Program-made: the position numbers and the translations under genes
The notes under the pieces: generated by a model
The model's database searches: none
Seen by the model: only the letters and a program-made list of their open reading frames with translations
What the model was told of the DNA's origin: nothing
Shown here: piece after piece, positions 2,157 through 12,809 of the stretch
Layout of the letters: each line of letters starts with the position of its first letter
Numbering within the stretch: position 1 is the first letter of the stretch
Source of the DNA: a virus
Taxonomy: Duplodnaviria; Heunggongvirae; Uroviricota; Caudoviricetes
Reading direction: 5' to 3' (one strand)
IMG/VR virus record: IMGVR_UViG_2740892047_000005
DNA: 19,034 bases

Positions 2157-2849
2157 TTAACCATGCTTCCTGTACGTCTGCGGCATGCTTCCAATGACCT
2201 TACCGAATATGAACACCCGGTTCATCTCGTCTTTCTCGATCGGGTCCCACGGCGAGTAGCTCTTGTTATCAGAGATAACCAGCAGCTTATCCTTCATCAT
2301 TTGAAGACGTTTTACATGGGCAGTGTCGTCGTACAGAAACGCATAGATGCCATCACCGTCGAAAGATTTAACAGTGATATCAACGAACAGCAGGTCACCT
2401 GGTTCGATCGTCCCTGACATGCTGTCACCGCGCACGTTAATAATGCGGATATTTTCCGCCTTCCTGCCATCGAACATGTGACGAGCATCGTCAAACGAGT
2501 ACTCAACCGAGCGTAGAACTTCCACAAACTCACGGTTGATGACACCCGGTCCGGCACTGACTTCTATATCAAGAACGTCAATCTTGAAGTATTTTGAATG
2601 GCTGACAGCAGGCTTCCCTGATTGTTGACCGTCATTTCTCATCGGGCCTATGCCTGATGAGAGCCATTCTGTTCGAACACCCAATGCATTAGCTATTTCA
2701 ACAATTTTTGTTGAGCCGCGCGCGTTGCCGCTTGTCAGTCTCCAGATTGTGGGTTGAGCTACGCCAGACGCCTTTGCAAGAGCGCCTTGAGACATTCCAG
2801 ATTGTTCCATCGCTAGGTTTAAGCGATCAGCAAGAGTTTCTTTTTTCAT
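2157..2849 (-). CDS. cI: CI-type prophage repressor (N-terminal HTH + C-terminal S24/LexA-like autopeptidase), 230 aa
   Basis: HTH segment SQGALAKASGVAQPTIWRL. S24 motifs: Ala-Gly cleavage-site-like VSAGPG, catalytic Ser in RGDSMSG, Lys in HVKRL. Start set at ATG 2849 (MKKETLADRL...) because the upstream ATG at 2885 lies inside the operator array. The PRM-like promoter implies a near-leaderless mRNA, as for lambda cI. Confidence 0.88.
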   Translation of the reverse strand: MKKETLADRLNLAMEQSGMSQGALAKASGVAQPTIWRLTSGNARGSTKIVEIANALGVRTEWLSSGIGPMRNDGQQSGKPAVSHSKYFKIDVLDIEVSAGPGVINREFVEVLRSVEYSFDDARHMFDGRKAENIRIINVRGDSMSGTIEPGDLLFVDITVKSFDGDGIYAFLYDDTAHVKRLQMMKDKLLVISDNKSYSPWDPIEKDEMNRVFIFGKVIGSMPQTYRKHG

Positions 2850-2858
2850 AAGTTTTAA

Positions 2859-2928
2859 TTTATACGCTTGCGTATTGATGGTCAAAACACGTTTTGCTAT
2901 TGCTTGGATTAATACGCATTGCTATTAT
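2859..2928. promoter_or_regulatory. OR region: three 14-bp operators at 25-bp spacing with divergent PRM (to cI) and PR (to cro)
   Basis: OR3 ATACGCTTGCGTAT (2862-2875, perfect palindrome), OR2 ACACGTTTTGCTAT (2887-2900), OR1 ATACGCATTGCTAT (2912-2925). PR: -35 TTGCTT (2900-2905), 17-bp spacer, -10 TATTAT (2923-2928), overlapping OR2 and OR1. PRM on minus: -35 TTGACC (rc of 2880-2885), -10 TATAAA (rc of 2859-2864), overlapping OR3. Confidence 0.55.
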
Positions 2929-2959
2929 TCATTCATTTCAATACCAATAGGAATTGATA

Positions 2960-3187
2960 ATGACAAATCAAACCATTCAACTCGCAATCAGTATTACAGG
3001 TAGTCAAAAACGACTGGCAGATCTATGCGGTGTAGCCCAACCCACAGTTTGGCGTTGGCTACACGGTGGCGGAATTGATGCCCGCTATGTAATGAAAATT
3101 GTCTCAGCCACTGGTGGAAAGATTAAACCAGCAGATATTCGTCCCGACCTCGCACCATTGTTTAACGCGAGTAATTCTGCCGCCTAA
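2960..3187 (+). CDS. cro: Cro-like HTH regulator (YdaS/DUF1019-like), 75 aa
   Basis: ORF track 2954..3187; preferred start is ATG 2960 (MTNQTIQLAISITGSQKRLADLCGVAQPTVWRWL...) with SD TAGGA at 2948-2952. Divergent from cI across the operator array. HTH resembles YdaS-type Cro analogues (from memory). Confidence 0.8.
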   Translation: MTNQTIQLAISITGSQKRLADLCGVAQPTVWRWLHGGGIDARYVMKIVSATGGKIKPADIRPDLAPLFNASNSAA

Positions 3188-3211: not shown

Positions 3212-3757
3212 ATGACTATGCAACCACTTACATACCAACAGACTAGCGGATTTAGCCCGACTGCGGTGATAAATCGTTCTCAAACAAAACAGGCGCCAGG
3301 CCACGAAAAAATCCGTGATGCCGTTCGCGCCTGGTCGGCTGCAGATAATCAGGATGTTGTTGCCGCACTCATTGTGAATGAGTATCGGGAGCAGGGCGGC
3401 GGCACCATCGATTTCCCTGATGATGTCAGCCGTGCACGCCAGAAGCTGTTCCGCTTCCTCGATAACAAATTCGATTCTGAAAAATACCGAAATAACGTGC
3501 GTGAACTGACCCCGGCAATTCTGGCGGTACTACCGCTGGAATATCGCGGCCACCTGGTTGAGCAGGATAGCTACATGGCTCGGCTGGCTGAAATGGAAAA
3601 GGAACTCAGTGAGGCAAAACAGGCTGTCATTCTCAACGCACCACGCCACCAGAAACTGAAGGAGATGAGTGAAGGCATTGTGTCGATGTTTCGTGTGGAC
3701 CCGGATTTGGCTGGTCCACTGATGGCGATGGTCACCACCATGCTGGGGGCAATATGA
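3212..3757 (+). CDS. YdaT-like protein (CII-position regulator of Rac-type immunity regions), 181 aa
   Basis: Segments IVNEYREQGGGTIDFP and RELTPAILAVLPLEYRGHL resemble E. coli Rac YdaT as I recall it. Immediately downstream of the cro-like gene and upstream of O. Confidence 0.75.
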   Translation: MTMQPLTYQQTSGFSPTAVINRSQTKQAPGHEKIRDAVRAWSAADNQDVVAALIVNEYREQGGGTIDFPDDVSRARQKLFRFLDNKFDSEKYRNNVRELTPAILAVLPLEYRGHLVEQDSYMARLAEMEKELSEAKQAVILNAPRHQKLKEMSEGIVSMFRVDPDLAGPLMAMVTTMLGAI

Positions 3758-3843
3758 CAGGTTCGGAAATGGCGAAAGCCGGTCTGCGCGAACAGAACCG
3801 ACTTTCAGGTGCAAATCGTAACACACTCATTGCGGGAGGAATT

Positions 3844-4773
3844 ATGGCAAACACTGCTGAGATATTCAATTTTCCAGTGCCGGATGTGGCACAAAAGGAG
3901 CGGCGCGTGGCAGATCTCGACGATGGTTATACGCGCATTGCAAATGAGTTGCTGGAAGCTGTGATGCTGGCCGGATTAACACAGCACCAGCTTCTGGTCT
4001 TCCTGGCTGTCATGCGCAAAACATATGGCTTTAATAAAAGACTGGATTGGGTGAGCAACGAGCAACTTTCCGAATTGACCGGGATATTGCCGCACAAGTG
4101 TTCTGCTGCAAAAAGCGTTCTGGTAAAGCGTGGGATTCTTATTCAGAGCGGGCGAAATATCGGCATTAATAATGTGGTCAGTGAATGGTCAACATTACCC
4201 GAATCAGGTAAGAAAAATAAAGTTTACCTGAAAGAGGTAAATTTACCTGAATCAGGTAAAAAAAGTTTACCCAAATCAGGTAAAGGCGTTTACCCGAATC
4301 AGGTAAACACAAAAGACAAACTAACAAAAGACAATATAAAACCTTTTTCGTCCGAGAATTCTGGCGAATCCTCTGACCAGCCAGAAAACGACCTTCCTGT
4401 GGTGAAACCGGATGCTGCAATTCAGAGTGGCAGCAAGTGGGGGACAGCAGAAGACCTGACCGCCGCAGAGTGGATGTTTGACATGGTGAAGACCATCGCG
4501 CCATCAGCCAGAAAACCGAATTTTGCAGGGTGGGCTAACGATATCCGCCTGATGCGTGAACGTGACGGACGTAACCACCGCGAAATGTGCGTGCTGTTCC
4601 GCTGGGCATGCCAGGACAACTTCTGGTCCGGTAACGTGTTGTGTCCGGCCAAACTCCGCGACAAGTGGACACAGCTCGAAATCAACCGAAACAAGCAGCA
4701 GGCTGGCGTGACAGCCGGCAAACCAAAACTCGATCTGACGAATACTGACTGGATTTACGGGGTGGAGCTATGA
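3844..4773 (+). CDS. O: Replication initiator protein O (lambda-type), 309 aa
   Basis: From ATG 3844 (SD GGGAGGA at 3834-3840): MANTAEIFNF...RRVADLDDGYTRIANELLEA...; C-terminal half AEWMFDMVKTIAPSARKPNFAGWANDIRLMRERDGRNHREMCVLFRWACQDNFWSGNVL... matches lambda O from memory. The ORF track extends it upstream to 3754, overlapping the YdaT-like gene. Confidence 0.92.
   Translation: MANTAEIFNFPVPDVAQKERRVADLDDGYTRIANELLEAVMLAGLTQHQLLVFLAVMRKTYGFNKRLDWVSNEQLSELTGILPHKCSAAKSVLVKRGILIQSGRNIGINNVVSEWSTLPESGKKNKVYLKEVNLPESGKKSLPKSGKGVYPNQVNTKDKLTKDNIKPFSSENSGESSDQPENDLPVVKPDAAIQSGSKWGTAEDLTAAEWMFDMVKTIAPSARKPNFAGWANDIRLMRERDGRNHREMCVLFRWACQDNFWSGNVLCPAKLRDKWTQLEINRNKQQAGVTAGKPKLDLTNTDWIYGVEL
4196..4350. 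repeat. Origin of replication inside O: iterons (4196-4306) plus AT-rich unwinding region (4307-4350)
   Basis: Direct repeats ttacccgaatcaggtaa (4196), tttacctgaaagaggtaa (4223, degenerate), tttacctgaatcaggtaa (4242), tttacccaaatcaggtaa (4266), tttacccgaatcaggtaa (4289), followed by acacaaaagacaaactaacaaaagacaatataaaacc. Same arrangement as ori-lambda inside O. Confidence 0.8.
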
Positions 4774-5471
4774 AAAACATCGCCGCACAGATGATTAATT
4801 TTGACCGTGAGCAGATGCGCCGGATCGCCAACAACATGCCGGAACAGTACGACGAAAAGCCGCAGGTACAGCAGGTGGCGCAGATAATCAACGGTGTATT
4901 CAGCCAGTTACTGGCAACTTTCCCGGCTAGCCTGGCTAATCGTGACCAGAACGAACTGAACGAAATCCGCCGCCAGTGGGTTCTGGCTTTCCGGGAAAAC
5001 GGGATCACCACGATGGAACAGGTGAGCGCCGGAATGCGTATCGCCCGTCGGCAGAGTAGACCATTCCTGCCATCACCTGGGCAGTTTGTCGCCTGGTGCC
5101 GGGAAGAAGCATCCGTTAACGCCGGGCTGCCAAACGTCAGCGAGCTGGTTGATATGGTTTACGAGTATTGCCGGAAGCGTGGCCTGTATCCGGACGCAGA
5201 GTCTTATCCATGGAAATCAAACGCGCACTACTGGCTGGTTACCAACCTGTACCAGAACATGCGGGCCAATGCGCTGACTGACGCGGAATTACGGCGTAAG
5301 GCTGCCGATGAGCTGACCTGTATGACCGCGCGAATTAACCGTGGTGAGGCGATACCTGAACCAGTAAAACAACTTCCTGTCATGGGCGGTAGACCTCTAA
5401 ATCGTGCACAGTCTTTGGCGAAGATCGCAGAAATCAAAGCTAAGTTCGGACTGAAAGGAGCAAGTGTATGA
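4770..5471 (+). CDS. P: Replication protein P (DnaB helicase loader), 233 aa
   Basis: MKNIAAQMINFDREQMRRIANNMPEQYDEKPQVQQVAQIINGVFSQLL... matches lambda P essentially throughout (from memory). Start overlaps the O stop (ATGA). Confidence 0.95.
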   Translation: MKNIAAQMINFDREQMRRIANNMPEQYDEKPQVQQVAQIINGVFSQLLATFPASLANRDQNELNEIRRQWVLAFRENGITTMEQVSAGMRIARRQSRPFLPSPGQFVAWCREEASVNAGLPNVSELVDMVYEYCRKRGLYPDAESYPWKSNAHYWLVTNLYQNMRANALTDAELRRKAADELTCMTARINRGEAIPEPVKQLPVMGGRPLNRAQSLAKIAEIKAKFGLKGASV

Positions 5472-5818: not shown

Positions 5819-6796
5819 TTAAATTGCAGGATCTTTTCCAACGGCAAGGAAAGGTTCTTGGTCTAGTGCAGTAAACGAAGCTTCGTTATTAAGCAAACGA
5901 ATAAAATATAATTTTTGTCTTTTGGTGGATAACTCAATTAACCCTGCTTGATTTATAATTATATTTCTTCCTAATATTGGGAAGTTTTGTATTAAACGCT
6001 GAATGTTAGCGATGGTTATAGTTCCGCTTTTTATTAGAGAACTGTTTGCTGTTGTAGCTAGTTTACGCATAAAATTTCTATTTTTATGCATATCATCAAA
6101 TATACCAAGTGGGTTTTGCAAGTTAGAAGTATCTAGGATATTCAATCCAATTATATGCGGTGTCGCTGTTGCTGCTAAATTATTAATTATTTGCTCGAGT
6201 CCATATACTCGCTCTAATAAGTTAATGTTTAAAGCATAGTATTTATTATTAAAATAAAAGAAATCAACATTTCCGTTTATATCAATACTGTCATGGTTAA
6301 CTTCGTCTAGTGTTCGTCCATTGGCAGAGAAATAGGATAGTCTTGTTTTTTTATGCAAAGATATTGGGTATTTATGTTGATAAACTACAACTCCATTACC
6401 TTGCCCATCGCAGAGATAGTATACAATTCCTTTAACAGAAGATAAGTCTTGCTGTTTGAAATCAAAATCAGGAGGGGTGTTATTAACTCCGAAATTAAGT
6501 ACATCTGGCATTTTTGCTAGAGCATCTGGGAGATGGTTTATTACATTATAATCATATTCGTAAACTTGTTTATCTCTATTTAGAAGGGAGGATACCAACG
6601 GCAAAAAGTTTTGACCAGCATTAGGGGCGATAACATCACGTTTAAGTGATTTGCTAAAAGATTGGGTTAATTTTTTTTCTGCACCAGGTTCTAATGCTAC
6701 TCGGTATATTTGTGTTATCCCTTTGTGTTCTGCAACGAAAAAGGCTTCACCAGAGATGTTGGCAGAATTTAAGATGTTATCTATTGCTGTAAACAT
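5819..6796 (-). CDS. Hypothetical 325-aa soluble protein, second gene of the AT-rich two-gene cassette; candidate defence effector (possibly KwaB/DUF4868-like, unverified)
   Basis: Intact ORF with RBS GAGGG 4 nt before ATG 6796. Starts 15 bp after the stop of the upstream membrane-protein gene on the same strand. No Walker A, no GS...DxD nucleotidyltransferase motif and no obvious nuclease motif seen by eye. N/I/L/K-rich, consistent with low-GC origin. Confidence 0.8.
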   Translation of the reverse strand: MFTAIDNILNSANISGEAFFVAEHKGITQIYRVALEPGAEKKLTQSFSKSLKRDVIAPNAGQNFLPLVSSLLNRDKQVYEYDYNVINHLPDALAKMPDVLNFGVNNTPPDFDFKQQDLSSVKGIVYYLCDGQGNGVVVYQHKYPISLHKKTRLSYFSANGRTLDEVNHDSIDINGNVDFFYFNNKYYALNINLLERVYGLEQIINNLAATATPHIIGLNILDTSNLQNPLGIFDDMHKNRNFMRKLATTANSSLIKSGTITIANIQRLIQNFPILGRNIIINQAGLIELSTKRQKLYFIRLLNNEASFTALDQEPFLAVGKDPAI

Positions 6797-6811: not shown

Positions 6812-7411
6812 TTAAACAATCTTTGCGAGACAAGTGTCATTATCTATTTTTATATATTTTATAGTGCTTTTATTATTTATTTCTCCACGACATATTATCA
6901 CAAATTCTTTTTTTCCGCGGTCGTTAATATTCGCTCTAAAAATTCTGAACCCTAATAGTGCAAGTGACGGATTTGAATAAAATCGATTTGTTTTAACATA
7001 AATCATTCCGATTGCAATTATCATTATTAATAGATTCAACATTGTTCGTTTGCTATTTACATCAGTAAAGACTAGTGGCATGACATAAGTTGTCAGGAAC
7101 TCTAAATGTTCATGGCTCTCGTTTTTTACGTCGGAAACAGTACATGCGACAGACCAACCAGAGTTAAATGATAAAAACAAATATAAAAATATAAAAAAAC
7201 CTGCCACCATCATTATAAAACTAAATAAAAAAACTATATTTTTGGGTGTGATTTTTGAAATGAATATAGCAAAGTCTTTATTGTTATAAGTTGAAATTAT
7301 AGTAAATATATTTTTATCATATGACATTATAAATAGAGAAACAAATAATAGCCATAGAGATAATATATATAGCGCATACTTTAAAGCTGTTCTATTTTTC
7401 ATGTTTTTCAT
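6812..7411 (-). CDS. Predicted multi-pass inner-membrane protein (about 4 TM helices), first gene of the AT-rich cassette; candidate sensor/membrane component (possibly KwaA-like, unverified)
   Basis: Hydrophobic segments ALKYALYILSLWLLFVSLFIMSY, IVFLFSFIMMVAGFFIFLYLFLSF, LEFLTTYVMPLVF, MLNLLIMIIAIGMIYV, then a ~55-aa charged C-terminal tail. Start uncertain: ATG 7411 (MKNMKNRT...), ATG 7402 or GTG 7426 (ORF track). Confidence 0.75.
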   Translation of the reverse strand: MKNMKNRTALKYALYILSLWLLFVSLFIMSYDKNIFTIISTYNNKDFAIFISKITPKNIVFLFSFIMMVAGFFIFLYLFLSFNSGWSVACTVSDVKNESHEHLEFLTTYVMPLVFTDVNSKRTMLNLLIMIIAIGMIYVKTNRFYSNPSLALLGFRIFRANINDRGKKEFVIICRGEINNKSTIKYIKIDNDTCLAKIV

Positions 7412-8362
7412 CTCTTGGGGAAACACCGTTTTGATACCGTTGCCAGCGAATATAACACTTTAATTAATTACGGTAAGTAACTTATAACAGTCAATAGATG
7501 TAAATAGAGATGGTGTGGAATCATTACTTGATGCTTTGGCACGCTACCGCCACAAACTCGTTGTGGTGAGTCTGTGGTATGTAGTCAAAACATAGATTTG
7601 CTGTTGTAATGTTACACCTGCATGGGTAACAAAATCTAGTGCGATACACATAGCCACTGACCATCTATACTGGTTTAATATACAGCATTTTATGACGATT
7701 CTCAATTATGAAACTAACTATTTTACAACCAGTTATGGATATCTATGCTTTTATGTACTAAAAATTCTTTAGTTACAGATGTATTGATGACGAGAAATTG
7801 CTAAAGCAAGATGAGTAAGGAACTAAATCAATAAAGTGGGGGCGGGGGGAGTTCGAGTGGCTAGGAGCATAGCGCTTGATTACTTTTGGTGGTTGAAAAA
7901 TGTTCGGTTGGGTGTCGCTAGGTGACTAATAGCTAAATTGGGAGATATACATATATAATATGAAATAAATCCCCACTTAATGCTTGTGAAATATTTATGT
8001 GACAAGCGGGTGTTCTTATTGATATTAAAATTCAATAACAGTGAGTTTTTATTCTTTTCTAAGTTTTGTAAATTGTTCTCACAGAGAAGGTTTAATTGTA
8101 TGTGCCTATATTTTTTTCTAGTGAATATAATGTCGGAATATATTAATATTGGCATATTCAGCAATGACTTCAAATATTCTTGATTTTCGATAATCAACTC
8201 GCCATAATCTCGTTGCTGTCGGCCTGAACATCCGGCGGTGGGGTTGCGCTAAACGGGGACGTTTATGCGCACACACAATCCAAACTCTCTTCTCCCTTCA
8301 CAGATGCAGAAATGCACCTGCGATTTTTTGTATTCTGCGTTTTACCTCTACGGAGGTGAAGC

Positions 8363-8818
8363 GTGAACCTCCCACAAGATGGTATCAAATTGCATCGCGG
8401 TAACTTCACCGCTATCGGTCGGCAGATCCAGCCTTATCTGGAGGAGGGCAAATGCTTTCGCATGGTGCTTAAACCGTGGCGCGAGAGACGCAGTCTTTCC
8501 CAGAATGCACTCAGCCACATGTGGTACAGCGAAATCAGTGAATACCTCATCAGCAAGGGTAAAACGTTCGCCACTCCAGCTTGGGTAAAAGATGCTCTCA
8601 AACACACATATCTCGGTTATGAAACCAAAGACCTGGTTGATGTCGTAACCGGTGATATCACCACTATCCAGTCGTTACGCCATACCTCCGATCTTGATAC
8701 CGGAGAGATGTATGTCTTCCTGTGTAAGGTTGAAGCCTGGGCGATGAATATTGGCTGCCACCTGACTATTCCGCAGAGCTGCGAGTTCCAGCAGCTCCGC
8801 GACAAACAGGAGGCGTAA
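8363..8818 (+). CDS. ybcN: YbcN-like nin-region protein, 151 aa
   Basis: GTG start at 8363 with SD GGAGG (8352-8356). [58 protein letters not shown]... matches DLP12 YbcN as I recall it. First gene of a tightly coupled nin-type operon. Confidence 0.8.
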
Positions 8819-8988: not shown

Positions 8989-9271
8989 TTTGAGAAAAGC
9001 AGCGCGTAGTCGGGAATGCCAGGTAAGAATCCCTGGCGTATGTAATGGCAACCCTGAAACGTCTGTACTGGCACATATCCGGCTGACTGGATTGTGCGGC
9101 ACCGGTACCAAACCGCCAGACCTGATTGCCACCATTGCATGTTCTGCCTGCCACGACGAAATCGACCGCCGCACACATTTTGTCGATGCTGCATATGCAA
9201 AAGAATGCGCGCTGGAAGGTATGGCGAGAACACAGGTTATCTGGCTGAAAGAGGGGGTTATTAAGGCGTGA
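8981..9271 (+). CDS. ybcO: YbcO-like protein (DUF1364 family, Cys-rich putative nuclease), 96 aa
   Basis: ATG 8981 with SD AGGAGG (8971-8976): [64 protein letters not shown]... Cys/His-rich. The ORF track extends it upstream to 8942. Confidence 0.8.
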
Positions 9272-9630
9272 ATACCTACAGCATCACATTACCCTGGCCT
9301 CCGAGCAATAATCGCTATTACCGCCATAATCGTGGGCGCACGCACGTCAGCGCAGAGGGGCAGGCATACCGCGATAACGTCGCCCGAATCATTAAAAACG
9401 CAATGCTGGATATCGGCCTGGCTATGCCTGTGAAAATCCGCATTGAGTGCCACATGCCGGATCGCCGTCGCCGTGACCTGGATAATCTGCAAAAAGCCGC
9501 TTTTGACGCACTCACTAAAGCAGGTTTCTGGCTGGATGATGCTCAGGTCGTTGATTACCGCGTTGTGAAGATGCCTGTTACCAAAGGTGGGTGGCTGGAA
9601 CTGACCATCACCGAAATGGGGAATGAATGA
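9268..9630 (+). CDS. rusA: Holliday-junction resolvase RusA, 120 aa
   Basis: [100 protein letters not shown]... matches E. coli RusA from memory. Confidence 0.93.
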
Positions 9631-9767
9631 TGTTTGAGTTTAATATGGCAGAACTTCTTCGCCACCGCTGGGGGCGTCTGCGCTTATATCGTTTCCCCGG
9701 TTCTGTTTTGACCGATTACCGAATACTGAAGAATTACGCCAAAACCCTGACAGGAGCAGGAGTATGA
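9627..9767 (+). CDS. ylcG: YlcG-like small protein, 46 aa
   Basis: Hand translation from ATG 9627 (overlapping the rusA stop): [46 protein letters not shown]. Position between rusA and Q as in DLP12. Confidence 0.65.
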
Positions 9768-9852
9768 AGTCAGAGATAACAATCAACTAATACTGTTTTG
9801 TTGATTTTTGCTTGTAATTGGCGTTCTGGTCTGATTTTTGTGGAGTAAGTTG

Positions 9853-10236
9853 ATGCGTGATATTCAGATGGTTCTTGAGCGTTGGGGAGCGTGGGCGGCT
9901 AATAATCATGAAGATGTGACCTGGTCGTCCATTGCCGCCGGTTTTAAGGGATTAATTCCTTCAAAAGTAAAATCTCGCCCGCAATGTTGTGACGATGACG
10001 CGATGATCATTTGCGGGTGCATGGCCCGTCTGAAAAAGAACAACAGCGATTTGCACGATTTATTAGTAGATTATTATGTAGTCGGTATGACATTCATGTC
10101 ACTGGCAGGTAAGCATTGCTGCTCTGATGGTTATATCGGGAAAAGGTTACAGAAGGCTGAGGGCATAATTGAAGGGATGTTAATGGCATTAGATATCCGG
10201 TTAGAGATGGATATCGTTGTTAATAACTCTAATTAA
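9853..10236 (+). CDS. quuD: Late-gene antiterminator Q (quuD-type), 127 aa
   Basis: ATG 9853 with SD GGAG (9842-9845): [34 protein letters not shown]...[18 protein letters not shown]... Cys-rich zinc-binding pattern of Q proteins. Matches DLP12 QuuD as I recall it. ORF track starts at 9838. Confidence 0.88.
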
Positions 10237-10252
10237 TATGCCAATTGTTTAC

Positions 10253-10415
10253 TAAAAATTATTAAAAATGGGGCGTTGCAACGCCCCCAAAAATAAAGGG
10301 TAATATATAACAGAAGGTTTATATAGTTAGAAGCAAGGTTGTGCTCCTAAAGGAAGTGGCTTGAGGGAGCCACTTATATGTTGGGGAGGCAAAGCCTCCC
10401 GCAACATATCTTTTT
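10253..10415. terminator. Intergenic hairpin cluster between convergent Q and nmpC: likely nmpC terminator(s), possibly also the PR'/qut/tR' region
   Basis: Perfect palindrome GGGGCGTTGCAACGCCCC (10270-10287) followed on the minus strand by a U-rich run (rc of ctaaaaattattaaaaat). Further hairpins agtggcttgagggagccact (10355-10373) and gggaggcaaagcctccc (10384-10400), the latter followed by a T-run on plus (10411-10415). Strand assignment is uncertain. Confidence 0.4.
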
Positions 10416-10425
10416 CGTAATCAGA

Positions 10426-11523
10426 TTAGAACTGGTAAACCAGACCTACAGCAACGATGTCATCAGTGCTTACACCGAGTGCTTTAGTGAAGTCATTTTT
10501 GTCAAGCAGGTTGATTTTGTAATCAACGAAAGTAGACATATTTTTGTTGAAGTAATAGGTTGCACCTACATCAACATATTTGACTAAGTCCTGATCGCCC
10601 CATACTCCAAGATCCTTACCTTTAGATTGCAGGTAAGCAACGGACGGACGCAGACCGAAATCGAACTGATATTGTGCAACAGCTTCGAAGTTTTGAGCTT
10701 TATTAGCAACGAAGTGATCAGCAAATACAGTCATATTCTGGGTTTCAGAATAGGTAGTGGCCAGGTAAATGTTGTTAGCGTCATATTTCAGACCTGCGGC
10801 CCAAACTTCTGCATTTTTACCGGAAGCAAATACTTCAGGAAGAACTTTCCCTGCATTAACTTGAGTGTCGGTACGATCAGATTTTGCATAAGTTGCACCG
10901 ATACCGAATCCTTCGTATTCATAGGTAGCAGAGAAACCGAAGCCATCACCGTTACCTTCGGTGTAGTTATCGAAATCGCTACGATCGTTTTTGCCTTGGT
11001 ACTGAGCAGCAAAGTTCAGACCATCAACCAGGCCAAAGAAGTCGTTGTTACGATAGGTTGCAACACCAGTGGTGCGACCAGTCATGAACACATCTGTTTG
11101 GGTCCAGGTATCGCCACCGAATTCTGGCAGAACGTCAGTCCACGCACCGATGTCGTATGCTACACCGTAGTTACGGCCGTAATCGATGGAGCCGTAGTCA
11201 CCGAATTTCAGGCCAGCGAAGGCAAGACGGGTTTTATCTTTGGAGGAACCTTGAGATTCAGCGCGGTTGCCTTTGAATTCATATTCCCACTGACCGAAAC
11301 CAGTCAGTTGATCGTTGATTTGGGTTTCACCTTTGAAGCCAAGACGGGCATAAGTAGTATCACCATCATCTGCATCATTAGAGGAGAAGTAGTGCTTAGC
11401 ATTAACTTTCCCGTACAGATCCAGCTTGTTACTGTCTTTATTATAAATTTCAGCTGCCTGAGCAGACATCGCCATCAGTACTGATGCAGCTACAGCAGAA
11501 ATTGCCACTGTTAATTTTTTCAT
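10426..11523 (-). CDS. nmpC: Outer-membrane general porin of the OmpC/OmpF/NmpC family, 365 aa, intact
   Basis: Signal peptide [23 protein letters not shown], then [24 protein letters not shown]... and C-terminal ...VAVGLVYQF (terminal Phe typical of beta-barrel OMPs). Convergent to Q, between Q and the lysis cassette, as nmpC is in DLP12. Confidence 0.93.
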
Positions 11524-11951
11524 CGTGAGCCCTTTTTTTTGAACTATTATTAAAAAATGATGTCACTGCGCGATAAATATTCATCTAATCAATATGATTA
11601 TTTCAAGATGTAAGTTTTGGTTTCTCGTTTGATTTGTGAAGTAGATCTCTATTTTTATCTGAACTTTTTTCTATCGAATCCTATTCATGGCTCTTGGCTG
11701 AATAAAAATAAATCTATTAGCCAATTTATATTAACGGTTGTTATTTATAAGTGCTCTATGATTTGAAGGTTCAATTTAAATCGGCTAAAAATAACACTAG
11801 AAATTATTTGTTGGTTATTTGTTGAGATTTGCTTATGTATTTGTAGTGGTGTTTTCAATACTCGGTAGCATTCTCGCAAATATCATTTAGTGGTTTACGT
11901 ACGTAAAAAATTGGTTATGCTGTTAAGAGTGGTTACTTCGTCACACAGCTT

Positions 11952-11984
11952 AAACCCGCCGTCGAGCGGGTTTTTCCATTTTTT
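11952..11984 (+). terminator. Rho-independent terminator on the plus strand, upstream of the holin gene
   Basis: Stem aaacccgc / gcgggttt with loop cgtcga (11952-11973), followed by ttccatttttt. Confidence 0.45.
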
Positions 11985-12096
11985 GAGTCTCGATATTAGC
12001 TGATAACCCAATACCTGAGTTATTCACTGACTCCGAGTCTGTTACGTTTCGTAGTATTCCCTCAATTTACACCCGCTTTGTCTGCGAGGTGGGGTT

Positions 12097-12312
12097 ATGA
12101 AATCCATGGATAAGTTAACAACGGGTGTCGCCTATGGCACCTCAGCAGGTAGTGCCGGTTACTGGTTTTTACAGCTGCTCGATAAAGTCACGCCCTCACA
12201 GTGGGCAGCAATAGGTGTGCTGGGTAGCCTGGTATTTGGCCTGCTGACGTACCTGACAAACCTTTATTTCAAGATTAAAGAAGATAAGCGCAAGGCTGCG
12301 AGAGGTGAATAA
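12097..12312 (+). CDS. essD: Class II holin of the phage 21 S (pinholin) type with dual-start motif, 71 aa
   Basis: [71 protein letters not shown]: two TM segments, charged C-terminus, Met1-Lys2-Ser3-Met4 dual start. Resembles S21/EssD from memory. Confidence 0.88.
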
Positions 12313-12809
12313 TGCCTCCATCATTACGAAAAGCTGTTGCTGCTGCTATTGGTGGCGGGGCTATTGCTATAGCATCTGTGTTAATCACTGGCCCAAGTGG
12401 TAACGATGGTCTGGAAGGTGTGAGACATAATCCTTACAAAGACATAGTTGGTGTATGGACTGTATGTTACGGGCATACAGGAAAAGACATCATTCCCGGT
12501 AAAACGTATACCGAAGCAGAGTGCAAAGCCCTCCTGAATAAAGACCTTGCCACTGTCGCCAGACAAATTAACCGGTACATCAAAGTCGATATACCGGAAA
12601 CAACGCGCGGCGCTCTTTACTCGTTCGTCTACAACGTGGGTGCTGGCAATTTCAGAACATCGACGCTTCTTCGCAAAATAAACCAGGGTGATATTAAAGG
12701 CGCATGTGATCAGCTACGGCGCTGGACATACGCTGGCGGTAATCAATGGAAAGGACTGATGACTCGCCGTGAGATTGAGCGTGAAGTCTGTTTGTGGGGG
12801 AAACAATGA
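12312..12809 (+). CDS. rrrD: SAR endolysin (T4-lysozyme-like glycoside hydrolase with N-terminal signal-anchor-release domain), 165 aa
   Basis: Gly/Ala-rich weakly hydrophobic N-terminus [20 protein letters not shown] (SAR-like). Catalytic triad spacing E-x8-D-x5-T in [17 protein letters not shown] as in T4 lysozyme (E11/D20/T26). Start overlaps holin stop (TAATG). Confidence 0.88.

Follow-up and report, generated by a model that had tools for sequence, protein, structure and literature searches.

Predicted late promoter and terminator between an inserted porin gene and the holin gene of a lambdoid phage

Layout of the Q-to-holin interval

The interval between the Q antiterminator gene and the holin gene was analyzed in the virus record IMGVR_UViG_2740892047_000005, a stretch of 19,034 nucleotides (nt), hereafter called the window, which according to its gene content is part of a lambdoid phage. 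The analysis concerned the location of the late promoter (pR'), its terminator (tR') and the porin gene that stands on the opposite strand between Q and the lysis genes. A preliminary description of the window had listed Q, a convergent porin gene, an AT-rich spacer, a plus-strand terminator at 11952-11984 and a holin gene starting at 12097, and all of these features are present in that arrangement. The genes of the interval and of the adjoining lysis region are as follows.

9853-10236, plus strand: Q antiterminator, 127 amino acids, Pfam PF06530 (Phage_antitermQ), E = 8.5e-54
10426-11523, minus strand: porin, convergent with Q, 365 amino acids, Pfam Porin_1, E = 1e-156
12097-12312, plus strand: holin of the phage 21 type (S21), Pfam PF04971
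12312-12809, plus strand: SAR (signal-arrest-release) endolysin/lysozyme, Pfam PF00959
12794-13243, plus strand: Rz homologue (spanin), Pfam PF03245
12097-13243, plus strand: the first late genes (holin, SAR endolysin, Rz spanin), the same genes being annotated in phages 434B and 21

The Q protein showed a full-length match to the PF06530 model (1-118 of 118), which establishes its family membership. It is 78-85% identical to the Q proteins of 933W (78%) and PhiR40_1, and distantly related to the solved structures of the phage 21 protein Q21 (6JNX and 6P18; E = 7.6e-08). The G+C content of the porin-holin spacer (11524-12096) is 34%, and that of its left part (11524-11892) is 29%, compared to 46% for the whole window. 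The Q-to-holin stretch of 2.5 kb was covered to at least 80% in 36 phage records, while the 189-bp spacer between Q and the porin was present in 2503 of 5426 complete Escherichia coli genomes (approximately 46%).

Prediction of the late promoter, leader and terminator

A blastn search against phage records, with the porin-holin spacer (11524-12096) as query, matched 356 records, of which only 36, all from porin phages, aligned along the full spacer. In most of the remaining records the match was restricted to 11893-11975 and fell on features annotated as promoter, terminator or Q. In 933W and VT1-Sakai, two phages that carry the stx genes (Stx phages), this match is located at the end of Q and coincides with the features "pR' putative late promoter", "qut" and "rho-independent terminator for pR' transcript". 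PhiR40_1 and 1720a-02 aligned over the same segment as well, in their Q-proximal late leaders. These alignments support an alternative that the preliminary description had raised, in which pR' and qut lie downstream of the porin within 11524-12096. The Q-to-holin interval is thus very probably a normal lambdoid late-control cassette divided by inserted cargo, in which the late transcripts start at pR' and never cross the porin gene. The features assigned to the promoter and leader are given below; locus L002 is that of 933W.

11894-11910, plus strand: inverted repeat TTTACGTACGTAAA with an A-tract, candidate Q-binding element containing the -35 hexamer; the repeat itself (11894-11907) corresponds to -34 to -21
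11894-11899, plus strand: predicted pR' -35 hexamer, TTTACG
11916-11921, plus strand: predicted pR' -10 hexamer, TATGCT, separated by a 16-bp spacer from TTTACG and aligned with TATCAT in the annotated pR' of 933W (L002, 702-729)
11924-11951, plus strand: start region and conserved initial transcribed sequence, TAAGAGTGGTTACTTCGTCACACAGCTT
11952-11984, plus strand: tR', terminator of the short late leader, a hairpin at 11952-11973 followed by UUUUUCCAUUUUUU
11985-12096, plus strand: untranslated leader from tR' to the holin start, with the holin ribosome-binding site; 19% polymorphic columns

The alignment of the window with 933W gave the following rows.

-35 region: window TTTACGTACGTAAA; 933W TTTACGATCGTAAA
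-10: window TATGCT; 933W TATCAT
Start region: window TAAGAGTGGTTAC; 933W identical
Terminator stem: window ACCCGCC...GCGGGTTTTT; 933W same stem

Both the start region TAAGAGTGGTTAC and the terminator stem were identical in the three-way alignment of the window, 933W and VT1-Sakai, and the start region was also identical in PhiR40_1 and 1720a-02. In the Sakai Stx phages the pR' start was mapped by differential RNA sequencing (dRNA-seq), 258 nt before the 3' end detected by Term-seq at tR' (PMC7547250). On the 933W locus this mapping therefore places +1 at about L002 735-736, which corresponds to 11927-11928 of the window. From this alignment we infer that transcription from pR' starts at approximately A11928, 6-7 nt past the -10 hexamer and 169 nt upstream of the holin ATG, and late transcripts would therefore never meet the porin gene. 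Another arrangement of the same elements, with the A-tract as the true -10 and TATGCT as a lambda-like pause element (+1 to +6), was rejected: no conserved -35 is found upstream, the homology with other phages begins at the inverted repeat, and the dRNA-seq start in Sakai lies about 7 nt after the TATCAT/TATGCT hexamer.

The hairpin downstream of the start has an 8-bp stem with 5 G-C pairs and a predicted energy of -12.0 kcal/mol, and was followed by TTCCATTTTT in the terminator scan. Relative to the predicted start, it extends from +25 to +46, with the U-run ending at about +57. It is homologous to the annotated terminator of 933W (L002, 762-784). No second strong hairpin was found from the pR' start to the holin, and 11985-12096 contains no open reading frame (ORF). 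The terminator at 11952-11984 was assigned as tR' because it is the sole strong hairpin before the holin, is homologous to the 933W terminator and is placed as in phage 21. The strong-looking terminator that had appeared as an obstacle on the way to the lysis genes is thus the one that Q has to overcome, and the expectation that late transcripts must pass it holds for this very reason. An Rfam scan of 9600-12400 at a permissive threshold returned two chance-level matches only (E between 0.5 and 1), a Trp leader over tR' (E = 0.53) and a snoRNA.

The conservation of the locus was determined by aligning 27 unique porin-type loci and counting the polymorphic columns, with the following results.

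11893-11984, pR'-leader-tR' island: 4 of 92 columns polymorphic
Flanking non-coding DNA: 124 of 499 columns polymorphic
Q coding sequence: 7% of columns polymorphic
Holin coding sequence: 9% of columns polymorphic

Conservation within the locus was highest in the 92-bp island, which differed significantly from its flanks (Fisher p = 1.5e-6), while 11524-11892 was the most variable stretch, with 16-41% polymorphic columns.

Several observations weigh against the proposed promoter. The hexamers TTTACG and TATGCT together match 8 of 12 consensus positions, below the threshold of 9 of 12 used in the scan, and the consensus promoter scan of the region returned only two sites, both inside Q, so that pR' was not called. 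In addition, no hexamer with both A at position 2 and T at position 6 was found in +1 to +15, as would be looked for in a pause element. The sequence 11924-11951 would be expected to contain the sigma-dependent pause element, and the best -10-like candidate in the leader is TACTTC at 11934-11939 (+7 to +12), a weak match whose equivalent in 933W is TACATT. The transcription start, the pause site and the dependence on Q are, moreover, carried over by homology. Finally, the hairpin homologous to tR' is located at +26 to +48 in the Stx phages, where the published tR' is a second, more distal terminator (L002, 965-993); in these phages the first hairpin may be a leaky terminator or serve a different function.

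A further point on the same side comes from the sigma-E-type promoter "essDp" reported for the E. coli K-12 prophage DLP12. Pasqua et al., citing Rueggeberg 2013 and 2015, state that a Q-type antiterminator and RpoE control the DLP12 lysis operon, and give -121 to +650 as the extent of their cloned regulatory fragment (PMC7918800). The Pdlp12Fw primer (-121) matches 11451-11470, implying a +1 at about 11572, which is 355 nt upstream of the proposed pR'; the position of essDp was deduced in this way from the primers of the later paper, whose printed reverse primer has no exact match. If essDp were the operative Q-dependent promoter, late transcription would start at about 11572, a short distance outside the start codon of the porin, under the joint control of Q and RpoE. 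A sigma-E-like motif does lie at the implied start, and it is identical in 26 of the 27 unique loci:

11541-11572, plus strand: sigma-E-like motif, GAACTA (11541-11546), 16 nt, TCACT (11563-11567)

This motif, however, lies within the 5' untranslated region (UTR) of the porin transcript on the other strand, so that its conservation may reflect the porin, and it is absent from every relative that has the same Q clade and leader but no porin. The reporter fragments (11451 to about 12222) also hold the 933W-type pR' and tR', which would explain the response to Q equally well, whereas a transcript from 11572 would meet tR' 380 nt further on, without passing a Q-loading site. On balance, essDp is very unlikely to be the operative Q-dependent promoter, and the discrepancy between its reported position and the module at 11893-11984 is brought to light here.

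The porin cassette between Q and pR'

Comparison with other phages showed that a cassette of approximately 1.67 kb (about 10220-11892) has been inserted between the end of Q and pR'. When the 3' ends of four Q genes were aligned, homology was lost past the LEMD codons at about 10219, and homology with other phages restarted precisely at the first base of the inverted repeat, 11894. The final codons of Q (IVVNNSN) are part of the inserted cassette. All contents of the cassette are on the minus strand: the porin gene, a structured 3' UTR with its terminator, and an AT-rich control region. The porin, which is of the lc/nmpC/OmpD type, is lysogenic-conversion cargo; the PA-2 record (J02580) names it lc, while the K-12 and 434B records name it nmpC, there disrupted by IS5. 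A late promoter directly after or overlapping Q was not found, since the Q stop codon is at 10236 and the -35 hexamer at 11894, with 1.66 kb between them. This separation is a common variant layout in this Q family and no ground for excluding the interval from the lambdoid late-control cassettes. The non-coding features of the cassette are listed below.

11524-11892, minus strand: porin upstream control region, right part of the cassette, AT-rich (29% G+C)
10255-10425, minus strand: 3' UTR of the porin transcript, structured over about 170 nt into four to five hairpins
10255-10287, minus strand: intrinsic terminator of the porin/IpeX transcript, GGGGCGUUGCAACGCCCC then AUUUUUAAUAAUUUU; 7 pairs, 6 of them G-C; -13.9 kcal/mol
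10376-10417, plus strand: hairpin (10376-10409, -22.7 kcal/mol) with CUUUUUCG after it, the whole element ending 9 nt short of the porin stop codon

RNA folding of the minus strand at 10240-10428 gave -64.6 kcal/mol (z = -6.6), and none of 200 shuffled sequences was as good, while the same hairpin region on the plus strand had a z-score of -4.9. The hairpins at 10253-10415 had been proposed as porin terminators, as tR', or as both. The first part of this proposal stands, as shown by the 3' UTR structure and the minus-strand terminator, and the second does not. The Q-porin spacer was found only alongside the porin, in the 36 porin-carrying phage records, and therefore belongs to the cargo and not to the late control region. 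The hairpins are 3' UTR structures of the porin transcript and convergent terminators. The simple terminator scan made no call on the plus-strand hairpin at 10376-10417; by its structure and position it is likely to halt unmodified polymerase that has passed Q, shortly before the porin is reached.

The preliminary description had reasoned that late transcripts would have to run antisense through the porin, that is, that pR' and qut follow Q directly (10237-10420) and that Q-modified polymerase then crosses the porin gene and the terminator at 11952-11984. The late promoter does follow or overlap the end of Q in lambda, 82, 21 and 933W, Q-modified polymerase could in principle traverse 1.7 kb and any terminator, and the plus-strand hairpin and U-run at 10376-10417 could act as a terminator in such a layout. 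Yet 10237-10425 resembles no late-promoter region and is confined to the porin-carrying records, the promoter scan found no promoter-like site in it, and its clearest and strongest terminator faces the other way, on the minus strand. The loss of Q-locus homology at about 10219, resumed only at 11894, and the presence of a complete conserved pR'-leader-terminator module downstream point in the same direction, and late transcription across the porin gene must be regarded as extremely improbable.

The 3' UTR of the porin transcript also resembles a described small RNA. According to a review, IpeX of DLP12 is a 167-nt RNA that originates at the phage porin promoter and forms part of the porin transcript (PMC12197685). 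The position, strand, size (about 170 nt from stop codon to terminator) and strong structure of the window's 3' UTR all agree with this, and the spacer shares 97.9% identity with the DLP12 segment of phage 434B (OL657227). By position, size and this identity, the porin 3' UTR fits IpeX. No Rfam family for IpeX or StxS matched 9600-12400.

In the upstream control region, the site for CRP given in the PA-2 record maps to about 11632-11652 of the window. The same record (J02580, locus L009), which dates from 1986, also labels the late leader AGTGGTTACTTCGTCACACAG at 1067-1087, equivalent to 11928-11948 of the window, as a CRP-binding site. This second placement was rejected, since agreement with the CRP consensus is limited to one half-site and porin-less phages carry the identical sequence as their conserved late leader.

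Comparison with known phages

The main finding agrees with biology that is already known, as the locus is near-identical to that of DLP12 (as carried in 434B) along its full length and to that of PA-2 in the Q-porin spacer and the promoter-leader-terminator segment, and its promoter is homologous to the pR' of Stx phages. In DLP12 (qsr') of E. coli K-12, and also in 434B, the genes are arranged as quuD, nmpC::IS5 and essD/rrrD/rzpD, in the same order and orientation as in the window. Q is 99.2% identical, and for the Q-to-holin stretch the identity is 98.6% in 434B. In both loci (L001 and L008) the window is matched without a difference over the 45 nt upstream of the leader motif and the next 75 nt, which cover promoter, leader and tR'. 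The loci differ in the porin, which is intact in the window but broken by IS5 in DLP12 and 434B, so that the gap between Q and the leader is 2888 nt in these and 1690 nt in the window. The late promoter has no feature annotation in the K-12 and 434B records. Phage 434B, in which the DLP12 segment has taken the place of Q, the late promoter and the lysis region, forms plaques (PMC9119081). The module thus sustains a functional lytic cycle in this phage (PMC9119081), whose viability, along with the reports of Q control of the DLP12 lysis genes cited in PMC7918800, gives indirect support for Q-dependent read-through. The record of PA-2 (J02580) does not hold the full Q gene, and contains an intact lc porin between the lysis genes and Q-adjacent sequence, with a Q-porin spacer 97.9% identical to that of the window. 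Its promoter, leader and tR' agree with those of the window except for two substitutions in the 120 nt compared, one changing the terminator stem from GCGGG to GCTGG and the other located upstream of the inverted repeat.

The Stx phages 933W, VT1-Sakai and H-19B have a Q of the same family and share the -35 inverted repeat (TTTACG-AT-CGTAAA), the -10, the start region and the first hairpin as homologous elements. In the Stx phages as in the window, cargo is located near the late promoter. The 933W promoter overlaps with the 3' end of Q and is followed, on the plus strand, by cargo (tRNAs and stx) that late transcription expresses, whereas the cargo of the window precedes pR', stands on the minus strand and is not part of the late transcript. 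The second terminator of 933W, at +258, which gives rise to the StxS RNA (PMC7547250), belongs to a part that the window lacks.

Phages 21 and 82 had been suggested for comparison. For phage 21 this was informative, since it has a Q of the same family, the same types of holin and endolysin, and a very short leader with a terminator ending at about +50. Its annotated parts are the -35, the Q-binding element (QBE) at -27 to -12, the -10, the start, the sigma-dependent pause element (SDPE) at +2 to +8 and the terminator at +3 to +50. The compact leader layout is thus alike, but the Q proteins show low identity confined to the N-terminal 80 residues, the promoters share no DNA similarity, and pR' of phage 21 directly follows Q. 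Phage 82, on the other hand, proved inapplicable. Its pR' has an extended -10-like element, GCC at +15 to +17 and a pause at +25 (PMC5001585), and the Q21/Q933W family (PF06530) is kept apart from the Q82 family in the Q21 structure paper (10.1101/651190). A system of the phage 82 type was rejected for the window, where Q matches the Q21/Q933W family and the nucleotides at +15 to +17 from 11928 are CAC, not GCC.

Proposed course of late transcription

The established mechanism of Q proteins combines a Q-binding element with a sigma-dependent pause, leading to a terminator-resistant complex (10.1101/651190). Applied to the window, pR' would fire constitutively and, without Q, transcription would terminate at tR' to give a leader RNA of about 50-57 nt. 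Encoded 1.7 kb upstream, Q would be supplied by the early rightward transcript and would bind beside or over the -35 region, with the inverted repeat at 11894-11907 as the likely site. It would then load onto polymerase paused in the invariant leader, and the modified polymerase would read through tR' to transcribe S, R, Rz and the late genes beyond them. In this scheme, antisense transcription into the porin would be possible only from early rightward transcripts passing Q. In the lysogen, the porin and the IpeX RNA would be expressed from their own promoter with no opposing transcription.

Such early transcripts could also contribute to lysis gene expression. If antiterminated by an N-type protein, they would run past Q, antisense through the porin and through pR' and tR' into the lysis genes, which would add to the pR' route and not replace it, providing a Q-independent share of lysis gene expression and lowering porin expression during lytic growth. 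In lambda, low-level Q-independent late expression through read-through is established, and the window has a lambda-like immunity and replication region (cI, cro, cII and ORFs at the O/P position) upstream, on the strand of Q. Apart from the hairpin at 10376-10417, no strong canonical plus-strand terminator was found between Q and the porin. That hairpin with its U-run nevertheless looks designed to stop early transcripts, and neither an N gene nor a nut site was identified in the window, the candidate ORF at 1547-1927 matching only a PHROG of unknown function. A contribution of early read-through, in addition to transcription from pR', is accordingly considered rather unlikely.

With pR' as the origin of the late transcripts, the late promoter and tR' are placed for a very common prophage module of E. 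coli, and the porin and IpeX form cargo outside the late transcript. The porin would therefore be expressed in the lysogen, without joint induction with lysis; stx, which follows the homologous promoter, differs in this respect.

The interval between Q and pR' in related phages

IMG/VR was scanned for the leader motif, which gave 120 loci, and the nearest upstream Q was located in each. The 103 loci with a complete Q were the basis for the counts of gaps and of co-variation, the gap being measured between the point where the Q match ends and the leader motif. Across these loci the gap ranged from 5 nt to 2.9 kb, and approximately three quarters of them carried more than 600 nt of cargo. The classes of gap length were as follows.

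20 nt: 933W type
41-70 nt: 1720a-02 type and a few others
632-864 nt: several groups; PhiR40_1 has 632 nt, after other minus-strand cargo
1104-1722 nt: many loci; the window has 1690 nt
2272-2467 nt: several loci
2888 nt: K-12 and 434B, with IS5 in the porin

The cargo ORFs were almost always on the minus strand. They encode the porin (34 loci), lipoproteins, NYN and NA37 proteins, a KwaB-like protein (PF16162) with a membrane partner, a PDC-S20/KAP-type NTPase (PADLOC, E = 1.4e-177), and several pairs of a soluble and a membrane protein without a family match; loci with cargo in the gap include L005, L013, L016, L018, L020, L029, L030, L049, L064, L113 and L124. Of the cargo proteins scanned with PADLOC and Pfam, ten for each library and nine of them common to both, most remained unmatched. 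Judged by these comparisons, the Q-pR' interval recurs as an insertion hotspot among phages whose Q proteins belong to PF06530, and the window is one case of a recurrent layout in which the cargo lies upstream of pR' and is directed away from it. The hotspot holds several uncharacterized two-gene cargoes, which may include defence systems.

A candidate Q-binding element

The Q proteins of the 103 loci were grouped into 14 clusters, each with at least 88% identity within the cluster. The repeat at -34 to -21, next to which an A/T tract extends to -15, co-varied with the Q clade in 103 of 103 loci. The form TTTACR-NN-CGTAAA pairs with the Q clusters of the window, 933W, PhiR40_1 and L106, which share 79-86% mutual identity, while GCGG(T/G)CCGC pairs with the 1720a-like clusters, GCG(T/C)ACGC with another Q group, and TGTTATAACA, TGGAATTCCA and TTCGTTACGAA with other clusters. 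Examples of the repeat are TTTACG-NN-CGTAAA, GCGGTCCGC, GCGTACGC, TGTTATAACA and TGGAATTCCA, and equivalent positions were located in L002, L005, L006, L014, L017, L018, L051 and L100.

The pairing was retained with up to 2.9 kb of changing cargo between Q and the repeat, and the sequences past the terminator were shuffled among Q clades. Two loci, L016 and L055, have a different Q, each with its own repeat; the leader, terminator and downstream sequence of L016 are identical to those of the window, whereas those of L055 are not. This is the pattern expected of a specificity determinant, and the repeat is therefore predicted to be a candidate Q-binding element. Tentatively, and at slightly less than even confidence, we propose that PF06530 Q proteins of the QuuD, Q933W and 1720a types recognize a clade-specific inverted repeat and A/T tract at -34 to -15 of pR'.

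If this is true, Q would bind as a symmetric dimer over the -35 region. In the solved Q21 complex, Q is bound to a head-to-tail direct repeat between -35 and -10. The Q21 element, ATTGAGCA/AATGAGCA, thus differs from that of the window both in being a direct repeat and in its position, -27 to -12 compared to -34 to -21 for the inverted repeat. In clades with a very poor -35 (e.g., TAACGC), Q might be needed even for use of the promoter, beyond antitermination. A limited literature search found no published description of a clade-specific inverted repeat. The related loci show that kilobases of cargo can come between Q and its promoter with a matched DNA element retained, and they offer natural specificity swaps for the study of DNA recognition by this branch of Q proteins.

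Other genes and features of the window

The remaining annotated genes of the window are given below.

2157-2885, minus strand: cI-like repressor
2954-3187: cro
3212-3757: cII-like activator
3754-4773 and 4770-5471, same strand as Q: ORFs at the O/P position, named by place alone
8363-8818: NinB match, weak and under the Pfam cut-off
9268-9630: RusA
From 15409: terminase genes

The holin gene has two in-frame ATG codons (12097 and 12106), three codons apart (MKSM...), a dual start that corresponds to the S21-type antiholin/holin arrangement annotated in phages 21 and 434B. The best promoter-like site of the region is antisense in Q, at 10073-10102 on the minus strand (GTGACA-18-CATAAT, 10 of 12 positions), and recalls the antisense promoter paQ annotated inside the Q gene of phage 21. 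Between the replication genes and ninB, two neighbouring ORFs were found on the minus strand, at 5819-6796 (325 amino acids) and 6812-7426 (204 amino acids). Both matched only PHROG families of unknown function (phrog_36735 and phrog_7312, respectively), and they look like another block of opposite-strand cargo, located in the early right operon.

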